Virus record (IMG/VR): IMGVR_UViG_3300042945_001784
Coordinates: 1 to 64,000 of that record
Direction: 5' to 3' (one strand)
DNA length: 64,000 bases
From: a virus
Part shown: piece after piece, positions 8,147-51,503 of the stretch
Numbering within the stretch: position 1 is the first letter of the stretch
Layout: each line of letters opens with the position of its first letter
Notes under the pieces: model-generated
The model's input: only the letters and a program-made list of their open reading frames with translations
Told to the model about the DNA's origin: nothing
Database searches by the model: none
Made by a program: the position numbers and the translations under genes

Positions 8147-8829
8147 ATGGGTAAGAAGAAAGACAAGAAGAAGCAGGATAAGGAACAGCTTCCTGTTTCT
8201 AATCATGCTCTCAAAATTAAATACATTCTGGATCACTTTAACTTTGACAAAGTTCAAGAGGCAATGATTGCATTGAACTGGGTGTGGCAACACATGGATG
8301 ATCCAGATGATCAAACCATGCGTGTTCCTACCATTGAACGCATGAAACAAACTGCTGCACATCTCCTTTATAACGCAGCTACAAGTAAGGAACGTTACTT
8401 TGCAACAGGTGGATTCCATGCTCAGCGTTATGAAGAAGGAGACATTGCTCTTCAATTCATAATTGCTGAGTACGATACATGTGATGACACCATGTAATCG
8501 TGACTACACATCCCAAGTTTTTTATCTACCGTAACTCCAACAAACAACTCGTTGCTAAAGCCATGAACAACATTGATTGGGAACCCAACGACAGCACCAA
8601 GGATCTCAGCAAGACTGATGCTCCTACCATGCGTCAACTGGCTGGGATGCAGCTCGTCGCCAGGATGAAAGAAGCTGCAGACAAAGTAGGTGCTGGTTTT
8701 GTTGGTGGCTTCATTGATGAGAATGGCAACCGCTTCATGATGTCCAACATGGGCGAAGACTGCATGAAGGAAGAAGAAATCATGAAGCAATTAGAACAAT
8801 ACAGACGTGAAATAGAGGGAGACTTCTAA
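8147..8829 (+). other. Two hypothetical CDS (8147-8497, 8500-8829)
   Basis: Packed ORFs; ILDHFNFDKV...ATGGF pattern in the first. Confidence 0.7.
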
Positions 8830-8882
8830 ACTATTGTCCAATAAAACTTTGGTAGAATATAACATAACTACCAATTAATACA

Positions 8883-9584
8883 GTGCCTGCTAACCCTTAC
8901 GAATCTGGTTTCTTTGCCCCAGTAACACTACCTTCTGGTGCTCAGCCAGTTCCAAGAGGCCAAGCAGGTCAGGTTATTCCAATGATGGGTGGTGCAACTG
9001 CATCACCCTTACAACTAAAAGGCGGATACCGGAACATCTACGGTACACGTGTAGGTGGTACTTACGATCCACTTACACAACAAGCTGGCGTAGATGTTCA
9101 AGTTCCTATCGGTGATCACCAACGACAACTCTTCTTTGGTGTTAATGCACAAGGCAATCCTCAAACTAAAGACTGGGGTGCAACTCTTTCTCTTACAAAG
9201 AAGATTGCCCCCAGGACTCCAACAGCAGGAGAAGCTATCAATGCAATCACTGGTGGAGCATTAAACCGCGCTGTACCTGGTGCACCCGGCGTAGTTCAAG
9301 CTGATTTACGTAGCAACTTTATGAACAGCTTGACACCAGAGCAACTTCAACTGCTTGGCCAAAACGTAAAAGAGTATCAGCGCCAGGCTGTTGATGAAGC
9401 TTTAGGTATTCGTCAAGGTGCAGAAAAGTACGGCTTTCAATTAGGTTTTTCCGGTAGTGGTCCTCGTAATGATCAACAAGAACCAGCAACAGATTTAATT
9501 CCTGAAGGTTTGTATCCTGATCAAAAGACTCCAGGTAAAGATCAACTCGATTATTTTATCCAAGAACGCAAACTTCTTGATTAA
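8883..9584 (+). CDS. Hypothetical Gly/Gln-rich protein, moron-like
   Basis: 233-aa ORF; extended -10 TGGTAGAAT at about 8850. Confidence 0.7.
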   Translation: MPANPYESGFFAPVTLPSGAQPVPRGQAGQVIPMMGGATASPLQLKGGYRNIYGTRVGGTYDPLTQQAGVDVQVPIGDHQRQLFFGVNAQGNPQTKDWGATLSLTKKIAPRTPTAGEAINAITGGALNRAVPGAPGVVQADLRSNFMNSLTPEQLQLLGQNVKEYQRQAVDEALGIRQGAEKYGFQLGFSGSGPRNDQQEPATDLIPEGLYPDQKTPGKDQLDYFIQERKLLD

Positions 9585-9589
9585 AGATC

Positions 9590-11615
9590 GTGTACAACAT
9601 CTGGAATGCAGCACTCTATGAAATAACTAACATCCTCATTGATTACAACAGAAAATTAGAACTTAACCCATGGATCAAAGCAATCCGTCTTCATTGCTTC
9701 CCAGACTGGGTAGCATGGAAGACCGAGCGCACCATGGGTCGAGTCGATCAACAAATTGAGCAGCTCCAAAAGGAGATGCAGATTGAACACGATAAGAAAT
9801 ATGTAACACCAATCATCAAAGAGCACAAGCCTGATCAGTCCAAGGCTCAGCAGCTTCTGGGTGGTACCCTACAGATCACAGCTCCCTGGTACAAACCAGA
9901 GGACAAAAACTAATTGCGTGTACACTGCAGTGAACCTACACACTGTTTACGTTAGAACCATGAAGATGCGGCAGTCTCCAGCTGATCAGAAACAGAATCA
10001 ATTCATTGAAGCATTACAGAGTGTTCATACAAAACTTACGAACCTTCTTGAGGATCCTCTCTTTATTGATAGTATTCATGGCGAACAAGAAATGGGTCTC
10101 GACCTTGCTCTTGAACTTATTGATAACATCATCGCTCGGATTGACCCCAAAGACACCAGCTCTCAAGCCGAGCTGATGGATCGCCTAGAGCTGACTGCTG
10201 TAGATGCAGACTGAGATTCATCAGACTCATCACACTGTATAACAAGAGTCATCTGCTCCTAGCCAGTGCTCCTAACCTATTCATGCCGTGGTCCACCTCC
10301 TATTGGTTGTTGGATCACGGCTTCTTTTTGCACACCATCCAATGTTCTCACCAGCAGAATACCTAACAAACCTCAGACAGATCAGTCTGCTCAATGGTTT
10401 GGTTACCCCACAGGGACAACTCCCTTCCATTCCATCCATCCCTAAGATCCAATCGGCGCCAGCAGGAATTCCTGTTGTAGCAACTGTTCCAACAGCACCT
10501 GAATGTCACGACATCATCAGTGCTGTTGCATGTTCCCCTTTAGCAATCAATCTGGCAGGACTTTTTGCAGCTGGATTGATTATCACCGTATTCATCAAGA
10601 AGTACGGACCTTCTATCCTTGCTTGGTTTCGCGACAAGATGCCACGCTTTCTTGCTTCTATCCGTAGCAAGATCAGTAAGCAACGCACCGTCCTGCTACT
10701 CCCTGCATCTCAAGCCGTGGTGATGGGCTGATGTATCGCACAAAAGCACATCACTTTTACAAAGGGAACCAGAAGTTCGCCAGAACAAAACAGTTCTGGA
10801 CTGTTTGGCGCAAGATCAGGATGGTCATTGGCATCATCTACGACAGTTGCTCCGTCATCTTGGTACTCATGAGTCTCGACAAGGTGTACAAATTCAAGAG
10901 CTGGCGGGTTGTTAAACCTTGGCAGGTCGCTACCCTTGTCGAACGCATTCCCAAGTTGTTCCGTACCCTCAGACATCACTTCACTTATGGGATCTAGCCG
11001 ACTCCAGTAGTCACAAAATAATAAGCAAAACTTAAGGTTCACTCAAGGTTTTCTTATCCATCCATTGCTACGCTGGTTTGCCTACAAACCCTGTCGTAGC
11101 AATGGATTTCAGTCTTACAAGACACTGCACTTGGATAGGTTTGTGCCCCTCATAATTAATTACCGGATGGAAAATATCTCCCATGGAATCCAATATGTCG
11201 CCAGCTGAAAAACTTGCCTGGGCAATCCTTGCTCAACGTCCTGACGGCAAGAGTGAAGTCATCAAAATTACCAATCACATTGAAGCTGACCAAGCTGTGA
11301 AGGAGAACCCAACTCTCTACTTCAAGAGCGGCCCGTTCGTGCTACCTTAAGTTCACTCCAGGGCACATCCTCGTCACTGTGTCCTGGGGAACCTTCTTCA
11401 TCTCAATGAAACTTCCTGTGACTGCTTACATCGTCATGATCCATCATGCAGATGTAGGTACCTTTGCTCCAGCCTTTCCCAATCTTGATGATGCCATTGA
11501 GTTTTCCAACGCAATGCGTCTCATCAACGACAATCTTGCTGTAGCAGAACCAGTTCCTCTGGTTTCTACGGCGTCGCCAGGTGGAAGCAAAGTATTAGAC
11601 TGGGTTGAGCACTGA
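9590..11615 (+). other. Small hypothetical CDS cluster (9590-9913, 9960-10214, 10342-10731, 10731-10997, 11406-11615)
   Basis: ORF track; 10342 has a predicted TM segment and a TGCACAC box. Confidence 0.6.
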
Positions 11616-11677
11616 CCCTCATTAAATAGAACAATAAGAACCTGTGTTATCTTGTATCGAGGTAACACAGATTTTTT

Positions 11678-11926
11678 ATGGCCGTTGTTCTGTCCGTTAG
11701 CATCCCAGATGAGATGCACGCCAGGTGGAAATCATCTAACTTTGATATCAGTCCTAGTGCAATCTTTCAAAATGCATTGGAATCACAACTGACTGAAACA
11801 AATCAGCATCTAACCTACTGGAGCAATCGTGCTCTGTCTGCAGAAAAGAAACTGAAGACTATCGAGAAGTTACTCTCTGCCAGTGAGAAGGAGATTAAGA
11901 AATTCCTTTACTTTGAAGACATGTGA
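11678..11926 (+). CDS. Ribbon-helix-helix-like DNA-binding protein
   Basis: VVLSVSIPDEMHARWK...ISPSAIFQNAL pattern followed by a coiled coil. Confidence 0.5.
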   Translation: MAVVLSVSIPDEMHARWKSSNFDISPSAIFQNALESQLTETNQHLTYWSNRALSAEKKLKTIEKLLSASEKEIKKFLYFEDM

Positions 11927-11991
11927 TCTTCCTAACAATTAGTTAGTAACCTGTTCGGTAGACTACAATTAACAAATGCATCTGCATTTCC

Positions 11992-12174
11992 ATGCCTGAC
12001 AGAGGTTACCTTTTCTTAAGCGATGATCAACGTCTTGACATTGCCAGCTTACTAACAACGCTCAAAGGGCTTGGCATTGTACGAGATGAAACAGATTTTC
12101 AAAGATTTGTAGCTGGTTGTTTCTATCGTGGTCTCTATGATTACAAAAGAGATTTAACTCGCAGCGACTGCTGA
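11992..12174 (+). CDS. Hypothetical protein
   Basis: 60-aa ORF. Confidence 0.55.
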   Translation: MPDRGYLFLSDDQRLDIASLLTTLKGLGIVRDETDFQRFVAGCFYRGLYDYKRDLTRSDC

Positions 12175-12539
12175 ACAACGAACCAAGAGAATCATTAAGA
12201 CAATATAAATAACTTAATAAATAATTAAATCTATTTGAACAGGCTACCAGTACTGCTGCGTAGCTTCATTTTATTTTGCAGATAAATCAAGAAAAGGTTC
12301 TCTTGGAGAACGGCCCACCGCCACGTAAGAATATAGATATATACAACATAGAACTAAACCTAAATAGATACATATGTACCATCCCATAGATAAAAAAATG
12401 GACCGGGCACCACCCCAGTCCACTCCCTTTGCTTTGCACACACAAACTTCAGATTCCCTTTCTGAAGCTGCATTGCCAGTCTAGACAACAGTCGCTAGTA
12501 TTTGCAAGCAAACGGCGCAACCTCATTTGCACACCCGCC

Positions 12540-12980
12540 ATGCCTCCCTTTAATTTCCAACCTGTTCAACTGCTAGAGTTGTCCGATGCTGACTCTCCAA
12601 GCATTGATGTTCAAGACGGACAGATCATTCTGACTGCACAACGTGGTCAAGAACGGATCCGTATTACTGCTCCCTTAAAGCAGGTTCTGCCTCAGGTCAA
12701 GGCAACAACTGTTACTAAGCCACAACGTAAGATCACTAGCCCTCTACGTGGTCGGCACCTTCCTGGTGGCGATAAGCGTGTTGGTGAGCTGAACGGGATG
12801 GCTAAGCTGACAGAAGATACTGTCCGTGAAATTCGGTTATTTCTGTCAGATAAGAAATTTATCAATAGCTTTCACAGCACTCAAGCTATGTACGAAGAAC
12901 TGTCCAAAGCTTATAACGTTCACTTCGCTACAATCCGTAGCGTTGCTCGTAACGAAAGCTGGAAGCATGTAAAGATCTGA
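12540..12980 (+). CDS. DNA-binding protein with HNH-associated HTH tail
   Basis: GELNGMAKLTEDTVREIR...YNVHFATIRSVARNESWKHV. Confidence 0.7.
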   Translation: MPPFNFQPVQLLELSDADSPSIDVQDGQIILTAQRGQERIRITAPLKQVLPQVKATTVTKPQRKITSPLRGRHLPGGDKRVGELNGMAKLTEDTVREIRLFLSDKKFINSFHSTQAMYEELSKAYNVHFATIRSVARNESWKHVKI

Positions 12981-13372
12981 TGGAAAAGACTTACAGCATC
13001 TTGATCCAGTTTGGTGATGGAAAGCCTGTAGCTTCTAAGATCAGAGCAAAGGATGGAGTCGATGCTCAGGACAAAGCACTACGCTTAAACCCTGGTGCAC
13101 GCTCCATCCGCATCACTGGTGTCTTAGAGGTTCATCTTCCAAAGCTGAAGCCTCTTCCTAAACCAAAACCAAAGGCAACTGTTCATCCACTCTTTACAGA
13201 TGTTGATGATGCAGTTGTTAGTAATTACGTCAAGAACACTTCTCCTGACGTTCGATTACAAATCTGTCACCAGCTGCGAAAGGAAGGTCTAACTTATAGG
13301 GCCATTGCCAAACAGTTGGATATGGGTGAGACAACAGTTCGCACCTGGCTCAAAAACACACTGCCCTCCTAG
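12980..13372 (+). CDS. Helix-turn-helix protein
   Basis: LRKEGLTYRAIAKQLDMGETTVRTWL. Confidence 0.8.
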   Translation: MEKTYSILIQFGDGKPVASKIRAKDGVDAQDKALRLNPGARSIRITGVLEVHLPKLKPLPKPKPKATVHPLFTDVDDAVVSNYVKNTSPDVRLQICHQLRKEGLTYRAIAKQLDMGETTVRTWLKNTLPS

Positions 13373-13385
13373 TGAGGGCTTTTTC
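13363..13385 (+). terminator. Rho-independent terminator
   Basis: GCCCTC-CTAGT-GAGGGC-TTTTT. Confidence 0.6.
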
Positions 13386-13402
13386 TTTGCACGTTTTGCA
13401 CC

Positions 13403-14962
13403 ATGGAATTCCGTCTTCCTGAACAACTGGCAAACAAACTGGTTGATTACGACCAGACTCTTAAACAAATCAAACCCAAGAAAGAACCAAGGGAAGCTGG
13501 CGCCAGACTTAAGCGGAAAACAAAGTTAGCTTTCCCTTGCCCTGACATCTTTTTTGATCTGACAGTAGAAAAAATCCACGAGATCTATGAAGAGCTTTGT
13601 TTCCGATCAGCTTCTTCACGTTATTACGTAGTTGACGTTCGTTATTTGATTGCATGGGATAAATGTTTACAAAGTAAAACAGAACATTGGTATTGCTGGA
13701 CGATTGGTAATAAAGAATGTCCAATCATTCTTAGACATTGGTACGAGTCTCTTGATGATACTGAGTACAAAGAGTTTCGTGCAGATACATCTTTAAAAGA
13801 TTTAAAGATTGCAAAAGGAAATCCATTCACTATACGCTACAAAGTAGAACGAGAACGTTTTGAAGCGTTTGATTCTTTCATCAGATCAGTTAATGCTCAA
13901 CTTGAATTGCCACATCCTCCTGAGCGTTCTGGTATACGCACACAGCTAGGACTTTATGCTGCAAGTAAGTTCTTCTATCAACAACACTTTAATGTTAAGG
14001 ATAAGGAATCTTTTTATCCTGCTGAATGGTTGGCTAATCAAAAGCTTTATACGCTAACAGAAGACTCTTTTAATCTCAAAACTAACAGCACCATTATCAA
14101 TAGTAAATTTTATCAAAACGAAGTTAGAAAAGAAGCGGAAACTTTAAAGCAAAACATCTTAACTGAGCCTGTACATACTGAACGTATGTTGCACAAGCTT
14201 AGCTATATCTATCTTTTTCTTACTGTATTCCCTGATGAATACGATCGTTCTATTCATCTTTATAATCAGTTTGCTGAGTATAAATTCTCTACTCACTGGT
14301 CAACATGGGGAGTATTCTACAAGCTTGAGTATGTAAGGCCAGGCTTTAAAGGAGAATTTATGGAGTGGTTACGCTCTAAAATTACTCCACAGATGTTTGC
14401 TAACTGGATTTTAGAAGAGATTGAAATTAAACAAAAGCGTGATTACGATACAACCATTCGTGACACGATGGATATGTTAATGCAAGTCAGACGATATATT
14501 GATAATTGTGTAACTCCTAATCCTGAATACTTAAAAGAACCTAAGCGTTGGCGTCTTCAAGAAGTTCATGATCATTATGTTGGTATTACTCTTCAACTGG
14601 ATAACCAACTGAAGAACTTACCTATGGATTTGATTCCGTCTCCAGTTACTTTTGAAACTGAAGTTGGAACCATTCATATGTTCCAGCCTTCTACCAACCA
14701 CGAAGTCATCCGCTGGGGCAAGGCAGTCCGTAATTGCGTTGGTTCAGCTGGCTATGACGACCGTGTGCTTCAGCACAAAGCCTTCCTGGTCTTTGCTGAA
14801 CGTAACGGGAAGCCCTGGCTGACCTCTCTGCTGACCCTGAACATGGGGATGCTCCACGTTGGTCAGACTGTCTCACCGTTTAATGCCAACCTAGAACCTG
14901 GTGAGCGCCAGGTGTATGAGCGGTGTTTACAGCAAGCACTTGGTATTACTGATCAACAGTAA
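13403..14962 (+). CDS. PcfJ-like domain protein
   Basis: C-terminal LQEVHD...P...EVIRWGKAVRNCVGS pattern. Confidence 0.65.
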   Translation: MEFRLPEQLANKLVDYDQTLKQIKPKKEPREAGARLKRKTKLAFPCPDIFFDLTVEKIHEIYEELCFRSASSRYYVVDVRYLIAWDKCLQSKTEHWYCWTIGNKECPIILRHWYESLDDTEYKEFRADTSLKDLKIAKGNPFTIRYKVERERFEAFDSFIRSVNAQLELPHPPERSGIRTQLGLYAASKFFYQQHFNVKDKESFYPAEWLANQKLYTLTEDSFNLKTNSTIINSKFYQNEVRKEAETLKQNILTEPVHTERMLHKLSYIYLFLTVFPDEYDRSIHLYNQFAEYKFSTHWSTWGVFYKLEYVRPGFKGEFMEWLRSKITPQMFANWILEEIEIKQKRDYDTTIRDTMDMLMQVRRYIDNCVTPNPEYLKEPKRWRLQEVHDHYVGITLQLDNQLKNLPMDLIPSPVTFETEVGTIHMFQPSTNHEVIRWGKAVRNCVGSAGYDDRVLQHKAFLVFAERNGKPWLTSLLTLNMGMLHVGQTVSPFNANLEPGERQVYERCLQQALGITDQQ

Positions 14963-28693: not shown

Positions 28694-28712
28694 TCCAAAC
28701 GCAACGAACGTA

Positions 28713-29636
28713 ATGTCTGTACTGGACCGCTACCTTAATATTGAGAAGTACCAGGGTGTCCTGCGTGACTTCTGCAACTGCCAGATCCTGAATGACAAGA
28801 GCCAGTGCGGTCTCTTTCTGAAGGACACTGTGCTGGCCCGTATTGGGTGGACTGGTACTCCCGATCAATTCCCTGATGCTGAGGAGTATGAGCACACCTA
28901 CAACAACGGTGACAGCAACAAAGGAATCTTCTTTAAGACTCCCCGCATGGTAGTGCTGCACTGCGGTTTCAGGAAAGATGTCACCTTTATCGAGAACTCC
29001 GAGAAGGGTGGCATCGAAGGAATCTATCCTCGTGATTCGTTTCTTTATGACGATTGGCAAGAGAAGAATCCTAACAAGCCTTCGCCTTACAAGCGTCGTC
29101 GCCTTGTTCTGATCTTCCTTGTCAATGAGAAAGGCACTCCGGTTCACAAGAAACCGCTGCTCCTTTCCATCCACGGTGGTGCTTCCAACCTGTTTACCGA
29201 TGCTTACGGCACTTTCATCGAGCAGCTGGAGTCTGCTTTTGCTGAATTTGCTGGGCTGAAAGGCGGTGCTGGCTTTGACCCCAAGCAAGCAGCTGCTGCA
29301 ATCTTCACTCCCACCTTTGGTTCTCAGCTTTATGGTGAGAACAACAAGAGCTGGATTGCGTTCCCTAAGCAATGGGTTGTTCCCACGGTCAAGAACATCG
29401 AGTCCTTCTTCCCCAAGGGTGACGATGATATTGACTTCATTGAGGAAGTGTGGGAAACCTGCCCGCCTGAGGTGTATGCCAAGTCCTTCTTCCAGCAATG
29501 TGAAAAGGAGATTGGCTACCACGCCATCAAGCCTGGCCTGGATTTCTCCCTGCCTCCTGTTGAATCGTCTGGATCCAGTGCTCGTGTGCTGACCGGCGCA
29601 CGGGATCCTGAGACCGGAGAGATCAGCCTGGATTGA
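28713..29636 (+). CDS. Hypothetical protein in the recombination module, possible ssDNA-binding/annealing protein
   Basis: Strong codon bias; DPETGEI tail typical of phage recombination proteins. Confidence 0.6.
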   Translation: MSVLDRYLNIEKYQGVLRDFCNCQILNDKSQCGLFLKDTVLARIGWTGTPDQFPDAEEYEHTYNNGDSNKGIFFKTPRMVVLHCGFRKDVTFIENSEKGGIEGIYPRDSFLYDDWQEKNPNKPSPYKRRRLVLIFLVNEKGTPVHKKPLLLSIHGGASNLFTDAYGTFIEQLESAFAEFAGLKGGAGFDPKQAAAAIFTPTFGSQLYGENNKSWIAFPKQWVVPTVKNIESFFPKGDDDIDFIEEVWETCPPEVYAKSFFQQCEKEIGYHAIKPGLDFSLPPVESSGSSARVLTGARDPETGEISLD

Positions 29637-31113: not shown

Positions 31114-31137
31114 TTGCACACCACGACATTACTCACC

Positions 31138-31734
31138 ATGGCTGACAAGCTTTCCCTGATCCAAATTGCTGAATCCATCCAGCACATCAGCTTTTTGAAG
31201 GATATGCCTGACATCCCTGAGGATGAGCGGGCCATGCTGGAGCAGCACCTTCACGATCTGGCTTCTCGCCAGGAGTCCAAGTTTGATGCCATCATCGGCA
31301 TGATTAAAAAGTGTGATGCTTATATTGAAGCATTACAAACAGAGATGGATGAGATCAAACAAAACCTAGATGCATGGAAAAAGAACCGGGAAAAGATGGT
31401 TTCTATTGTTAAGTTTGCTTATCAACAGAATCTGATTGATAACAAGCCAACTGGTACTAAATATCAAGCTACGATTCGTAGAGTTAAGCCACGTCTTGTA
31501 GATAACTTTGAACACTGGGAGGAGGAAGATAAGACTGAGTTTGGTTTGCGTAAGACCACGACAATAACGCGCATTAAAGACAACACTGTTGTAGATGTAA
31601 AGCAAGAGGATTTACCTGATAAAGATCGGGTGCGTGATGCACTTGCTACAGATGACGGTTCAGCGCCAGCAGCAGCTCAACTTGTTCCTGGATTCTCCTT
31701 TGTTTATGAGCGTTGTAAAAGGTTAAGTACCTGA
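31138..31734 (+). CDS. Siphovirus Gp157/Gam-like coiled-coil protein
   Basis: ESKFDAIIGMIK...EALQTE...; PDKDRVRDAL C-terminus. Confidence 0.65.
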   Translation: MADKLSLIQIAESIQHISFLKDMPDIPEDERAMLEQHLHDLASRQESKFDAIIGMIKKCDAYIEALQTEMDEIKQNLDAWKKNREKMVSIVKFAYQQNLIDNKPTGTKYQATIRRVKPRLVDNFEHWEEEDKTEFGLRKTTTITRIKDNTVVDVKQEDLPDKDRVRDALATDDGSAPAAAQLVPGFSFVYERCKRLST

Positions 31735-31750
31735 TCACACTTTTAAGTTC

Positions 31751-31768
31751 CAACAACAACAACAACAA
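31751..31768 (+). repeat. (CAA)6 microsatellite at the start of the gene array
   Basis: caacaacaacaacaacaa. Confidence 0.8.
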
Positions 31769-31776
31769 ATTCAACA

Positions 31777-32124
31777 ATGACTCAAGAACACCCGATTACA
31801 CCGCCCCCTGAGCTGGTGGAAAAGTGGCTGGAGAACACTTGCTCGCATGACTGCATCGGAGCTTACCCGGCGAACTACGAGCAGCTCATCTGCACCCAAG
31901 CCGCCCGCTGGGGCGCTGATCAGGAGCTGGAGGCGTGCTGTGAGTGGCTTAAAGCCAAAGAGTGGATTCACCACGAATTCAGCGACGAACTCCGCGCCGC
32001 CCGTCGCCCCAAGCCGCCGAGCTTGAAGGAGCAAGCGCTTGCAGTTTTAGACGACGCCTCAGATCGTCTTGATGCTGCTCACGAAAACATCATCCGCCGC
32101 GCACTGGAGCAACTCGATGGCTGA
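31777..32124 (+). CDS. Array gene, family A copy 1
   Basis: HPITPPPEL / QAARWGADQELEACC / RRPKPPSLKEQAL / IIRRALEQL blocks. Confidence 0.85.
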   Translation: MTQEHPITPPPELVEKWLENTCSHDCIGAYPANYEQLICTQAARWGADQELEACCEWLKAKEWIHHEFSDELRAARRPKPPSLKEQALAVLDDASDRLDAAHENIIRRALEQLDG

Positions 32125-32638
32125 TTACACAGCAACGCCCAAGCAATGGGCCGAAATAGCGCATTGGTCTGATGAATACGGCTACGCTCCTCAAACCTGC
32201 ATCCTTGAACTCCGCGCCAGGGTCAAGACGCTAGAAGATACGGTTCAAAAGCACATTGTCGAAACGAATTCAAACATTGTGGCTTTATTTAGCCGGGTTG
32301 AATCGTTAGAAGCTGCTGAACGCCAAGCATCAAAAGTCCACCAGATCAGCAAACCTCTGAAACTTACTGCAAAGCAACAGGCAGAGTTAAAGGCATTGCT
32401 GACGCCCGATTTTAGGGTTGGCATGACGCCAACTTCTACTTCAAACCAAGTTGGTAATTCGCTGGTGAATCAGGTAGCCCGTGCCATCGGTCGAGACGAT
32501 GAACCCATCAACTGGGAGGAAGAAGCCCGCGCTGCGATCCGCACGGTGGCCTTGTGGCTTAACGAAACTCCCTTTGATCTCTACCCCGGTGATCGCGGCA
32601 TCATTGTCAATGCTCTTTATGACCAAGTAAATCAATGA
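32117..32638 (+). CDS. Array gene, hypothetical
   Basis: ATGGCTGA overlap with copy 1; MADYTATPKQW... Confidence 0.75.
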   Translation: MADYTATPKQWAEIAHWSDEYGYAPQTCILELRARVKTLEDTVQKHIVETNSNIVALFSRVESLEAAERQASKVHQISKPLKLTAKQQAELKALLTPDFRVGMTPTSTSNQVGNSLVNQVARAIGRDDEPINWEEEARAAIRTVALWLNETPFDLYPGDRGIIVNALYDQVNQ

Positions 32639-32817
32639 CTGACTTCAAATTTGTGCCACTAAACAGCCTTGAGAATCGCCTCGGTGATGCTCTTGGCCTT
32701 GCCATTGCCATGATCCGCGATCCAAGCGCCGTGGACAACAAAGCCATGGCTCAGATCGAGGCGCCATTCAAGGAATGGTGTGATGCTCTCGTTGATGGAG
32801 GTCTACTCAATGACTGA
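32635..32817 (+). CDS. Array gene, hypothetical
   Basis: CAATGACTGA junction at both ends. Confidence 0.7.
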   Translation: MTDFKFVPLNSLENRLGDALGLAIAMIRDPSAVDNKAMAQIEAPFKEWCDALVDGGLLND

Positions 32818-33049
32818 CACCACCCCACTGAGCCCCGCCGCGCAGGCAGTGCTGGATGCCCTGCACACAGAAAACTCAACGGGTCCAGAGCGGTATTGGG
32901 CTCGTGCCAATGCCGTTGCCGCCCTGCGTGCTGCTGCGGATCAAGTAGTGCCAAAGTTTTGGCATGAGGACAACGACATTTACGGTGAAACAATGCAAGA
33001 CGTGCGTCAAAACCTCCTCGCCATCGCCGCCGAGCTTGAAGCCCAGTAG
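32810..33049 (+). CDS. Array gene, family B
   Basis: LSPAAQAVLDA...AAALRAAADQVVP...LLAIAAELEAQ; ends CCCAGTAG. Confidence 0.75.
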   Translation: MTDTTPLSPAAQAVLDALHTENSTGPERYWARANAVAALRAAADQVVPKFWHEDNDIYGETMQDVRQNLLAIAAELEAQ

Positions 33050-33061
33050 TCAACATCACTA

Positions 33062-33235
33062 ATGCTCAAAGACATCACACGCTGTCACGGCACAGGCTGC
33101 CCCGCAAAGCAACATTGCCTCAGACACACTGCACCAATCCCAGACAATGTTCTCCTGTCATGGGCGGCAAACCTCAACTACGAGCGAGCGCACATCTGCG
33201 CTTACTACATGCCCGCTACGCCCAAGACCCAGTAG
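33062..33235 (+). CDS. Array gene, 57-aa Cys-rich protein
   Basis: MLKDITRCHGTGCPAKQHCLRH...ICAYYMPATPKTQ; ends CCCAGTAG; below ORF-track cutoff. Confidence 0.7.
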   Translation: MLKDITRCHGTGCPAKQHCLRHTAPIPDNVLLSWAANLNYERAHICAYYMPATPKTQ

Positions 33236-33252
33236 TCCGATCAACTAACACC

Positions 33253-33951
33253 ATGACTGACCAATTTGTTAGCGCCAACAAAATGGTGCCGCCACGTGAG
33301 ATTATTGAACAATGGGCTAATGAAAAGGATTACGACGAACGCGATTGGCTTTACGAGATCCACATAGCAAACTGTGCTGCTGCGTGGGGTGCTAACCAGC
33401 AACTAATTGCAGATGCAAAGTGGCTGGATCACAATGCCTTGAATGAACCTCACCTAAGGATCACCCCAGTGGGAGAATCATTGAAGGAAGCGATGCGTCC
33501 AAAAAGTATAAAGGAGCGGGCATTACACGATCTTCATACTGCTTATAACGCGGATCAAATTGATGACCTTGGGAGAAATTCAATGACTAACCAACAACAC
33601 CCGATCACCCCACCGCCGGAGCTGGTAGAGCAGTGGCGCGATTTGCCCGAGTTCACCGATGGGCGGCGAAAGATGATCATGGTCACTCTTTCAAGAGAAA
33701 AACTTCTAGACATCGCCACTCAAGCCGCCCGCTGGGGCGCTGATCAGGAGCTGGAGGCGTGTTGCCATCTGCTGCGACAGCAGGGGTTTGACGTGGTTGA
33801 CGACCTTCGCGCGACCCGCCGCCCAAAACTGCCATCATTGAAGGAGCAGGCCCTGAGCGAGTTGAACCTGACTGCTGATCCCAACGGAGCCGAACTTTCA
33901 CGAACCCAGGTTGAACTTATCCGCCGCGCATTAGAGCAACTCAATGACTGA
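33253..33951 (+). CDS. Diverged family A copy (33253) read in frame into family A copy 2 (33583)
   Basis: AAAWGANQQL...RPKSIKERAL, then MTNQQHPITPPPEL...QAARWGADQELEACC...IRRALEQL. Confidence 0.75.
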   Translation: MTDQFVSANKMVPPREIIEQWANEKDYDERDWLYEIHIANCAAAWGANQQLIADAKWLDHNALNEPHLRITPVGESLKEAMRPKSIKERALHDLHTAYNADQIDDLGRNSMTNQQHPITPPPELVEQWRDLPEFTDGRRKMIMVTLSREKLLDIATQAARWGADQELEACCHLLRQQGFDVVDDLRATRRPKLPSLKEQALSELNLTADPNGAELSRTQVELIRRALEQLND

Positions 33952-34285
33952 GAAACACCCGATCACCCCACCGCCGGAGCTGCGTCGACTCTGGGCACAG
34001 CAAGCGCAACGCAAGAATCCACGCGATCCAGTGGCGTGGCAAGAGTACATCGCCGCCCAAGCCGCTCGCTGGGGCGCTGATCAGGAGCTGGAAGCGTGCT
34101 GTGAGTGGCTAGTAGTAGATGACTGGAAAAATGTAAGCGAGAACCTTCGCGCCTTCCGCCGCCCCAAGCCGCCGAGCTTGAAGCCCAGTAGTCCGACCCA
34201 CTTCTATTTAAATTCTGTTATAGTAAACAAGTTCCCGCTCTTTTTGATCGGGCAGATAGAGCCCAAGCCTCTGTCCAGTCCCTGA
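33944..34285 (+). CDS. Family A copy 3 with recombinant 3' end
   Basis: Conserved blocks up to PPSLK, then sequence identical to the family B end. Confidence 0.7.
   Translation: MTEKHPITPPPELRRLWAQQAQRKNPRDPVAWQEYIAAQAARWGADQELEACCEWLVVDDWKNVSENLRAFRRPKPPSLKPSSPTHFYLNSVIVNKFPLFLIGQIEPKPLSSP
34216..34224 (+). promoter_or_regulatory. Extended -10 promoter for the candidate ncRNA
   Basis: TGTTATAGT. Confidence 0.55.
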
Positions 34286-34454
34286 GGCTGGTTACGCTTG
34301 GGCCATCAATTAAGGGGACAACCCTGGACTGAGGTTGTCTTAAACGAAGTTCACCCATCAAAGTGTGCTCGCCCTTTATTGGTTACGCGTCAGGCAGACA
34401 GCCTGGAGGGCGGCCACGGTTCTGGAGGCGTCCGATAACGTCTCCCCGTTTTTT
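34231..34454 (+). ncRNA. Candidate structured ncRNA with two loop-loop pseudoknots (possibly manA-like)
   Basis: Six helices; GTCCAG/CTGGAC and TTATTGG/CCGATAA pairings; ends in a T-run. Confidence 0.7.
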
Positions 34455-34697
34455 CCGCCAGTGAACCGTCGTCAACTCTGGCACCTCTGGGCAAAAGCAC
34501 TCGGAGAAAAAACAGGACGGACAACCTCAGAAGCTGATCGGGTTGCCCTTATTCGTTCCGTTATTTTCTTAACTTATTTCTTAACCAATTGTTTCATTGT
34601 GGCTGGTGTCATTCGCCACTGGAACAATTGAGTCTTGTGTAAGACTTAACACTTTTTCCCTACTGTCCCTAGTAACCAAGAAGAACATCCGCTAATC

Positions 34698-51343: not shown

Positions 51344-51428
51344 GGGAGCGTGGCGGAATTGGTATACGCTGCGGACTTAAAATCCGTTGGTCTCGACCTT
51401 GTGGGTTCAAGTCCCACCGCTCCTACCA
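51344..51428 (+). tRNA. tRNA-Leu(TAA)
   Basis: Cloverleaf; anticodon arm GCGGA-CTTAAAA-TCCGT; long variable arm; GGTTCAAGTCC; encoded CCA. Confidence 0.95.
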
Positions 51429-51429
51429 C

Positions 51430-51503
51430 CGGGATATAGCGCAGCTTGGTAGCGCATCTGCTTTGGGAGCAGAGGGCCGCAGGTTCGAATCCTGCTATCC
51501 CGA
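51430..51503 (+). tRNA. tRNA-Pro(TGG)
   Basis: Anticodon arm TCTGC-TTTGGGA-GCAGA; GGTTCGAATCC; no encoded CCA. Confidence 0.95.

Follow-up and report, generated by a model that had tools for sequence, protein, structure and literature searches.

In HsdS of Type I restriction-modification, recombination in conserved regions reassorts two target-recognition domains. Highly variable regions lying among well-conserved ones are described for the segmentally variable genes of Zheng, Roberts and Kasif (2004, PMC387263), and the T-even phage adhesin gp38, as presented in PMC3157838, is a virion receptor-binding protein whose hypervariable segments (HVS) recognise outer-membrane receptors and lie between strictly conserved glycine-rich motifs (GRM) that make up the structural core, and the exchanges that gave rise to chimeras took place in these motifs or close to them. 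The modular evolution of phages, in which boundary sequences are conserved, is represented by Botstein (1980) and by the T4-type mobile regulatory cassettes of Arbiol et al. (2010), both as cited in PMC3157838, and relaxed homologous recombination by phage recombinases by the account of De Paepe et al. (2014, PMC3945230). Here we describe an array of eight small genes, 31777-34285, which all run in one direction (+ strand, as for the repeats, joint, hairpin, and flanking genes of the island given below) in a viral DNA stretch of 64,000 nucleotides (the window, which is the whole stretch analysed, positions 1 to 64,000 of IMG/VR virus record IMGVR_UViG_3300042945_001784, an 80.8-kb record with an estimated completeness of 94%). 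Taken as a whole, we consider it probable that the array is a horizontally acquired island with mosaic genes, set among the replication and recombination genes of a lake cyanophage-like virus, and that homologous recombination at the level of the population reshuffles segments of these genes, with crossovers in conserved blocks, and exchanges whole genes at conserved junctions.

The open reading frames (ORFs) and the sequence agree with the original prediction in that eight small co-directional genes lie in a GC-richer stretch (0.53-0.54 across 32001-34000 versus 0.36-0.53, mostly 0.40-0.47, in the rest of the window), that seven of the eight start with ATGACT or ATGGCT (gene E is the exception), and that four copies belong to one family, here called family A. 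All four were recovered with the first copy, A1, as the query (E 9.6e-80, 1.1e-26, 8.6e-25, and 1.0e-6) and match the phrog_32006 profile. Specifically, A1 (31777..32124) is a full-length gene that matches the profile over most of its length (positions 2-112 of 116, E 6.1e-31), and the profile alignment divides it into four constant blocks, C1 (31777-31827), C2 (31888-31950), C3 (31990-32040), and C4 (32092-32124), separated by three variable segments, V1 (31828-31887), V2 (31951-31989), and V3 (32041-32091). The next two copies had been taken for separate genes and are instead the two domains of a single ORF of 232 aa with no intervening stop codon, A2-A3 (33253..33951, matching the profile in two stretches at E 4.2e-31), in which the A2 domain (33253-33582) represents a diverged subfamily and the A3 domain occupies 33583-33951. 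The last copy, A4 (33944..34285), matches at residues 1-83 only (E 1.6e-21); it is truncated beyond the PSLK block at a recombination joint and its tail is non-family sequence. A repeat finder run on the window returned the shared blocks as repeat D1 (three 80-nt copies, 74-84% identity), D2 (the N-terminal block, 61-76%), D3 (the RRPK..PSLK block, 70-75%), and D6 (the IRRALEQL end, two copies, 88%), together with a 14-nt junction word in five copies (D4). Near-identity, which had been ascribed to the blocks in general, holds for the middle block only, where the 41-nt core of D1 is exactly the same in A1 and A3 and carries two changes in A4, and of the three copies of this block placed at 31897, 33721, and 34057, the third begins at 34058.

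As in gp38, conserved motifs alternate with hypervariable segments in family A, which is a likeness of design and not of homology, and as in gp38 the variable segments reassort independently of one another. The evidence comes from 184 unique full-length family-A genes, drawn from 186 IMG/VR loci, two isolates (S-H1 and S-RIP1), and the window, where the comparison samples are the best 80 IMG/VR matches each for A1 and A3. Domains had to span the profile from position 6 or less to position 108 or more, by which A2 and A4 were excluded, and each gene was cut by profile alignment into the four constant blocks and three variable segments; alleles were formed by single linkage at 0.8 and a segment was called shared at an identity of at least 0.85. 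The nucleotide identity of the constant blocks is unimodal, at ~0.7-0.9, while that of the variable segments is bimodal and lies at the level of shuffled sequences (99.9th percentile 0.65-0.68) save for a small tail at 0.75 or above. The 184 genes hold 118 alleles of V1, 102 of V2, and 113 of V3, which occur in 175 V1-V2-V3 combinations. Pairs that share V1 (n = 97) have an unrelated V2 in 76 cases and an unrelated V3 in 84, the 153 pairs that share V2 have an unrelated V1 in 130 and an unrelated V3 in 132, and among the 90 pairs that share V3 these counts are 77 for V1 and 74 for V2. The number of combinations that share both alleles is 13 for V1-V2 (1.8 after shuffling), two for V2-V3 (1.7 after shuffling), and two for V1-V3 (0.9 after shuffling), and on these counts linkage among the segments is weak or absent. 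Independent reassortment of the segments is shown by these data, as had been predicted.

The A1 gene of the window is itself a patchwork, in which V1 resembles that of L005-L008 at 0.90-0.93, V2 equals that of one gene of locus L014 (copy 1) at 1.00, and V3 together with C4 equals those of a different L014 gene (copy 2), also at 1.00. Likewise, protein P0001, from another assembly, joins the A2 domain of the window (126 of 128 identical) to the V1 of A1, the C2-V2-C3 of A3, and a new V3. Cultured phages also take part: in isolate S-RIP1, V3 is 94% identical in nucleotide sequence to that of L064, but V1 and V2 stand at 0.48 and 0.60, and in isolate S-CBS2, V1 and V2 are matched by different partners at 0.83. 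The positions of the exchanges can be read from the 63-nt C2 block, where pairs that share V1 and not V2 show a mismatch frequency that rises from 0.07 beside V1 to 0.33 beside V2 (48 pairs), and the 75 pairs that share V2 and not V1 go the other way, from 0.48 down to 0.03; pairs that share neither run from 0.45 through 0.19 to 0.37. A comparable but weaker gradient is found in C3. The gradients show crossovers within the constant blocks, which upholds the breakpoints that the original prediction had placed there and parallels the exchange points within conserved motifs of gp38.

The pN/pS within shared alleles of V1, V2, and V3 is 0.17, 0.12, and 0.23, respectively, on 81-107 distinct but non-independent sequence pairs per segment, and by this measure purifying selection within family-A alleles is shown. 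Because the differences within alleles are mostly synonymous, the variable segments would be functional alleles and not drifting loops. In the constant blocks, the codon identity at identical residues is 0.67, compared to 0.43 in variable columns and an expectation of 0.34 from codon usage (94 sequences), which bears out the predicted conservation of synonymous sites, and pS in the blocks is 0.45-0.58. Hence the blocks appear conserved beyond the protein level and yet vary from one family member to another. The excess in codon identity has in part a simple source, since the last family-A block carries the ribosome-binding site (GGAG) and the start codon for the gene that follows.

This dual coding at the end of the A genes also explains the stereotyped starts. 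Of the 186 distinct contexts found 3' of A genes, 109 have the next ATG 5 nt ahead of the A stop codon, in a ATGNNTGA overlap, and 17 further contexts have an ATGA overlap. Among the 109, a D gene follows in 26 contexts, an A gene in 20, a B gene in 10, and some other gene in 48, and in five the following gene is short or absent. With the following gene varying and the junction constant, whole genes would be exchanged at conserved junctions, as in modular phage evolution, where, in the sources cited above, short and diverged homologies suffice. Unlike modular phage evolution, one junction type here lies inside coding sequence, the A end holding the next start, and exchange reaches the sub-gene level, with segments of 10-25 codons. 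The design recurs in a second segmentally mosaic family, represented in the array by gene D (32810..33049), which is built from five parts, of which three are constant blocks and two variable segments, and was found in 109 of ~167 contigs. Among 109 unique D sequences (those lacking any of the five parts were dropped), 30 pairs share V1, of which 28 have an unrelated V2, and 28 pairs share V2, of which 26 have an unrelated V1; by these counts family D has the same segmental design as family A.

The array lies in an insert. The accessory island (2,484 nt, 31752..34235) sits between a Gp157-like gene and a phrog_1679 gene, and a 7-nt direct repeat, AAGTTCC, is found at its left edge (31745..31751) and again at 34229..34235; homology with the closest relative, L204, continues to the left copy of this repeat in the alignment. 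We compared 18 syntenic IMG/VR loci in which the Gp157-like gene is 65-96% identical in amino acid sequence to that at 31114-31734, and at the island site genes A to E are missing from all of them. Such presence in one phage, with close relatives lacking the insert at the corresponding site, is expected of a moron-like accessory island. Most of the 18 keep the neighbouring genes (SSB, DUF5895, the small genes after 34461, exonuclease, and primase-helicase), and in L204 only ~85 nt separate the flanking genes, whose proteins are 91-99% identical. No promoter-like or terminator-like sites were found on the + strand within the island; 3' of it, in flank common to L204, a hairpin (34424-34445) and a T run make up a terminator-like site at 34424..34455. 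A run of CAA repeats (31752-31776) opens the island just 5' of the A1 start, and ~150 nt between its right edge and the hairpin (34259-34410) are absent from L204, which makes a second indel.

The gene families of the island are common in picocyanobacterial phages. In IMG/VR, A1 matches at least 590 relatives, A3 at least 578, and the A2 subfamily 28 loci, and a single copy lies near SSB, endonuclease, or primase genes in each of three cultured Synechococcus phages of different kinds, S-H1, S-CBS2, and S-RIP1 (an autographivirus). Two to six distinct copies were present in the fetched flanks of 61 of 164 contigs (the window counted), and two or more A domains in 18 of 49 longer relatives, which makes the A2-A3 fusion a recurrent form. 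Unlike gp38, families A and D are small and non-structural, helical rather than glycine-rich, carried in a replication-module island, and often multi-copy per genome, and unlike the segmentally variable genes and HsdS, which are cellular and of known function, family A is phage-borne, with much shorter segments (27-87 nt), three per 115-aa protein. Family-A loci also occur on 10 contigs of bacterial metagenome-assembled genomes (L194-L203, labelled Fonsibacter, actinobacteria, Luteolibacter, Gammaproteobacteria, Synechococcus, Cyanobium, and others), which are probably phage DNA binned into unrelated genomes and not host genes. In P0031 and P0048, family-A domains are fused to other parts, in one case a WDGH domain followed by A and a D-like part and in the other a partial A behind pentapeptide repeats; these may be genuine fusions or the product of read-through gene calling.

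The strongest alternative, although we judge it very unlikely, is that of programmed diversification within one genome, either from array or silent-cassette donors by gene conversion of the pilE/pilS kind or by a dedicated enzyme, as in diversity-generating retroelements and integrons. It would account for several copies in one array, one of them truncated, for the conservation of junctions and gene-end words, for P0001 uniting alleles held by A1 and A3 of the window, and for the recombination-type module that adjoins the array (SSB, Gam-like gene, exonuclease), and localised hypervariability on a conserved protein scaffold in phages is what family A shares with diversity-generating retroelements. 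However, the whole 80.8-kb record has no match to the PF00078 reverse transcriptase (control positive in three of 14 genomes) or to a PF00589 tyrosine integrase such as integron IntI (control positive in 14 of 14), extending to the full record what had been noted for the window. A template/variable repeat pair differing at adenines was not found among the repeats, which are family blocks only, and the variable segments of the paralogues are unalignable and unequal in length. Unlike those of diversity-generating retroelements, the variable segments are discrete alleles of differing length under purifying selection, a poor fit with targeted mutagenesis.

As for gene conversion, a window copy is in every block less close to its own paralogues than to many genes from other contigs. 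In the middle block, A1 differs at two of 60 nt from L005-L009, and its own paralogues rank 11th, 41st, and 113th of 117; the same block differs from A1 at four of 36 nt in the marine isolates S-H1 and S-CBS2, and in C3 both S-CBS2 and S-RIP1, with 3-4 differences in 42 nt, are nearer to A1 than A3 is. Recently exchanged tracts between copies of the same genome, as in antigenic variation by gene conversion, were not found, and a variable allele is shared in one of 64 same-contig pairs versus 423 of 16,772 between-contig pairs. On these two grounds we rejected gene conversion within the genome as the origin of the near-identity of the blocks, and because genes of other contigs are closer than paralogues, this near-identity would reflect family-wide conservation and not exchange within the array. 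The recombination-driven diversification of the original prediction therefore survives in part, with the blocks as crossover anchors in the population and not as a self-contained system in this genome. Given that reverse transcriptase and tyrosine integrase are missing from the record and that paralogues are not the nearest relatives in the blocks, we favour population-level recombination over a self-contained machine; general homologous recombination, acting on a design of gene known before from gp38, is all that the pattern requires.

A further possibility is that the mosaics are short-read chimeras, in which an assembler switched between variants at k-mers shared in the blocks, and this we regard as very unlikely. 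Such chimeras would likewise put apparent crossovers within blocks. In the lake runs X13 and X14, the constant blocks are where k=31 contigs stop, with many loose branching ends, and in X13 the depth climbs from ~35 to 403-473 in these blocks, about tenfold; the Logan contigs of four lake runs, with partial coverage in X15 and X17, are unable to prove linkage across the A1 blocks. Against this, 30 of the 184 full-length genes are found, without a single letter changed, in at least two metagenome data sets, cultured phages show the same architecture and, in the case of S-RIP1 and S-CBS2, take part in allele sharing, and the blocks, at 63 nt or less, are shorter than a read, so reads would be expected to bridge neighbouring variable segments. 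Moreover, small X13 contigs with V2 and V3 of A1 have depths of 34.3 and 33.1, compared to 35.5 for the unique flank, an X14 contig covers 33721-34969 without a difference, P0001 joins the window's A2 domain to V1 of A1 and V2 of A3 in a separate assembly, and words of the array occur at 0.96-1.00 in 14 lake-water runs from 2020-2025, 13 of which are flagged as possible sources of this DNA.

Ordinary old paralogues with conserved motifs, unconstrained drifting loops, and no notable recombination are the least probable reading and one already contradicted, for although the blocks map to helix cores and the predicted dimer interface, with the variable segments at helix ends and loops, and although synonymous differences in the blocks are substantial, in most pairs the identical or near-identical DNA segments lie beside unrelated neighbours, the mismatch gradients within blocks point to crossovers, the variable alleles are constrained and not drifting, codon identity in the blocks is about twice that expected, and none of the 18 syntenic relatives carries the island. 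The original prediction had named fixed gene order, saturated synonymous sites, and congruent segment phylogenies as the marks of such paralogues; the array is in none of the relatives, the gene after A varies at a conserved junction, codon identity is above expectation, and the segments reassort independently.

An AlphaFold model of A1 has five helices (pLDDT 86.9, pTM 0.58), in which the variable segments are helix ends and loops. A homodimer was predicted with a score of 0.57, compared to 0.01 for the best of three controls, and on a benchmark whose counts are only approximate this mark is attained by 20 of 30 proteins solved as same-chain pairs and by one of 23 solved as single chains; the prediction used our own alignment. 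Between runs, at least 92% of contacts agree, with a partner pLDDT of at least 79. This supports rather than shows homodimer binding by family A, and a predicted homodimer fits the recurrent tandem fusions of A domains. The predicted interface (residues 5-18, 35-58, and 72-77) is made of constant blocks, with the variable segments outside. In the model, V2 and V3 lie wholly outside the interface and contribute no residue to it. This position and the purifying selection within alleles are indirect indications that, as in gp38, the variable segments may set binding specificity.

We propose the following mechanism for the reshuffling. The conserved blocks would serve as crossover points at which ordinary homologous recombination shuffles alleles among phages, and recombination would occur during co-infection via general recombination functions of the phage or host. 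The eight small genes of the island are probably translationally coupled, and the variable segments would be exposed surfaces that give specificity to a dimeric early protein engaged in a conflict, for which anti-defence, escape from sensing, and phage-phage exclusion are candidates; several copies per genome would then give a broader range of specificity.

Several points weigh against this proposal. The pairs that were compared are non-independent, and pair counts therefore overstate the number of events; the sampling took the best 80 matches to A1 and to A3 and was not a random draw; and the comparison sequences are nearly all short-read metagenome assemblies, in which the branch points of the assembler coincide with the inferred crossover sites, since k=31 contigs break and depth rises in the blocks. 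The blocks also contain the substantial synonymous differences given above. The record has no match to the named recombinase families RecT and ERF and no identified Rad52-like recombinase. Pfam and NCBIfam have no family for A, and Foldseek gave no fold match for it in the PDB at E <=0.001. The arms-race reading, finally, is drawn solely from the pattern of variation. Other searches gave a similar picture: Pfam and NCBIfam likewise have no family for C, D, or E and a sub-threshold match only for B, Foldseek against BFVD returned family members only, a wide VIA-align search reached a best Z of 5.9 with helical proteins, which is under the meaningful level for helical folds, a PDB sequence profile search gave a single match at E 0.57, a protein atlas gave viral 'hypothetical protein' clusters only, and no paper on family A surfaced in titles or abstract openings, which is a weak negative.

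The A4 joint is a 26-nt stretch (34168..34193, repeat D8) identical to the end of D (33026-33051) and in a different reading frame. A DNA word general to families A and D was considered and rejected, as the first 16 nt of the joint are found in only two D contexts, compared to 85 of the 223 unique A-domain sequences. With the 16-mer common in A and rare in D, the joint would be a single deletion at a chance short homology, and it is real DNA, since the X14 contig that spans it has zero differences. D-type genes have, in 36 distinct contexts, a conserved gene-end word that extends beyond the stop codon, CCCAGTAGTC, 6-7 nt, and ACTA, and holds a 4-bp dyad; its sites in the window are 33039-33056, 33228-33250, and 34184-34202. 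The next start codon often follows it by ~2-12 nt, and it resembles a conserved intergenic linker.

Gene B (32117..32638) starts at ATGGCTGA in an 8-nt overlap with the A1 stop and has homologues in 30 contigs; gene C (32635..32817), which has an ATGA overlap with the stop of B, is present in nine contigs, with 100% amino acid identity in L026; and gene E (33062..33235), which encodes a small Cys-rich protein, is in three contigs. The stretch 32089-32954 is 97.3% identical in nucleotide sequence to L096/L097 in a blastn map of the array against all loci (at least 88% identity over at least 60 nt; an incomplete map, of which only the L096/L097 and L166 rows were used).

The module around the insert is one of replication and recombination, with DNA polymerase A, dCMP deaminase, SSB, DUF5895, the Gam-like gene, a phrog_298 exonuclease, and a primase-helicase, and the SSB, Gp157-like, and exonuclease genes among which the array had been placed are all nearby. 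The left neighbour of the island is the Gp157-like or Gam-like gene (31114..31734), which matches PF05565 below the cut-off (E 7.4e-05) and phrog_253 at E 2.7e-06, and the right neighbour is the small phrog_1679 gene (34461..34631; E 7.8e-25, at residues 35-88 of an 88-aa ORF), which is present in 12 of the 18 syntenic relatives. Other inserts, of 2.5-3.5 kb, lie between homologues of the 35838 and 36303 genes in the relatives L205/L206 (about 10127-13640) and L212 (about 8802-11297), and we take these to mean that the module has several insertion hot spots. The DUF5895 protein (28710-29636; Pfam E 4.8e-16) is encoded directly 3' of SSB and kept in 17 of the 18 relatives, a position that suggests a role in recombination or replication; its PDB matches are weak only (phosphate-binding proteins, E 4e-4) and were not interpreted. 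Adjacent tRNA genes for Leu(taa) and Pro(tgg) lie at 51344-51503.

A more far-reaching reading, which we put forward as tentative and, in its entirety, unlikely, is that families A and D form an unrecognised class of non-structural phage proteins for combinatorial specificity. In such proteins, a dimeric scaffold would be encoded by blocks shaped, synonymous sites included, to anchor recombination, discrete and anciently maintained recognition cassettes would be provided by the exposed variable segments, arrays and tandem fusions might yield heterodimers of mixed specificity, and the targets might be variable host defence proteins or rival phages.

Segment shuffling at conserved motifs is already known for phage receptor-binding proteins. 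What the island adds is the same design in small non-structural proteins, in two unrelated families that adjoin one another, and, in family A, ~100 or more alleles per segment that are near linkage equilibrium over at least 163 phage contigs from many waters. Conserved blocks of this kind are, in practice, branch points in the short-read assembly of cyanophage genomes, and they offer a natural system for measuring the shortest homology that phage recombination can use. Discrete alleles that are kept by selection and yet recombine freely would be the signature of a frequency-dependent conflict, and it is this signature that makes these 'hypothetical proteins', plentiful in picocyanobacterial phages, good candidates for specificity determinants in defence or counter-defence.

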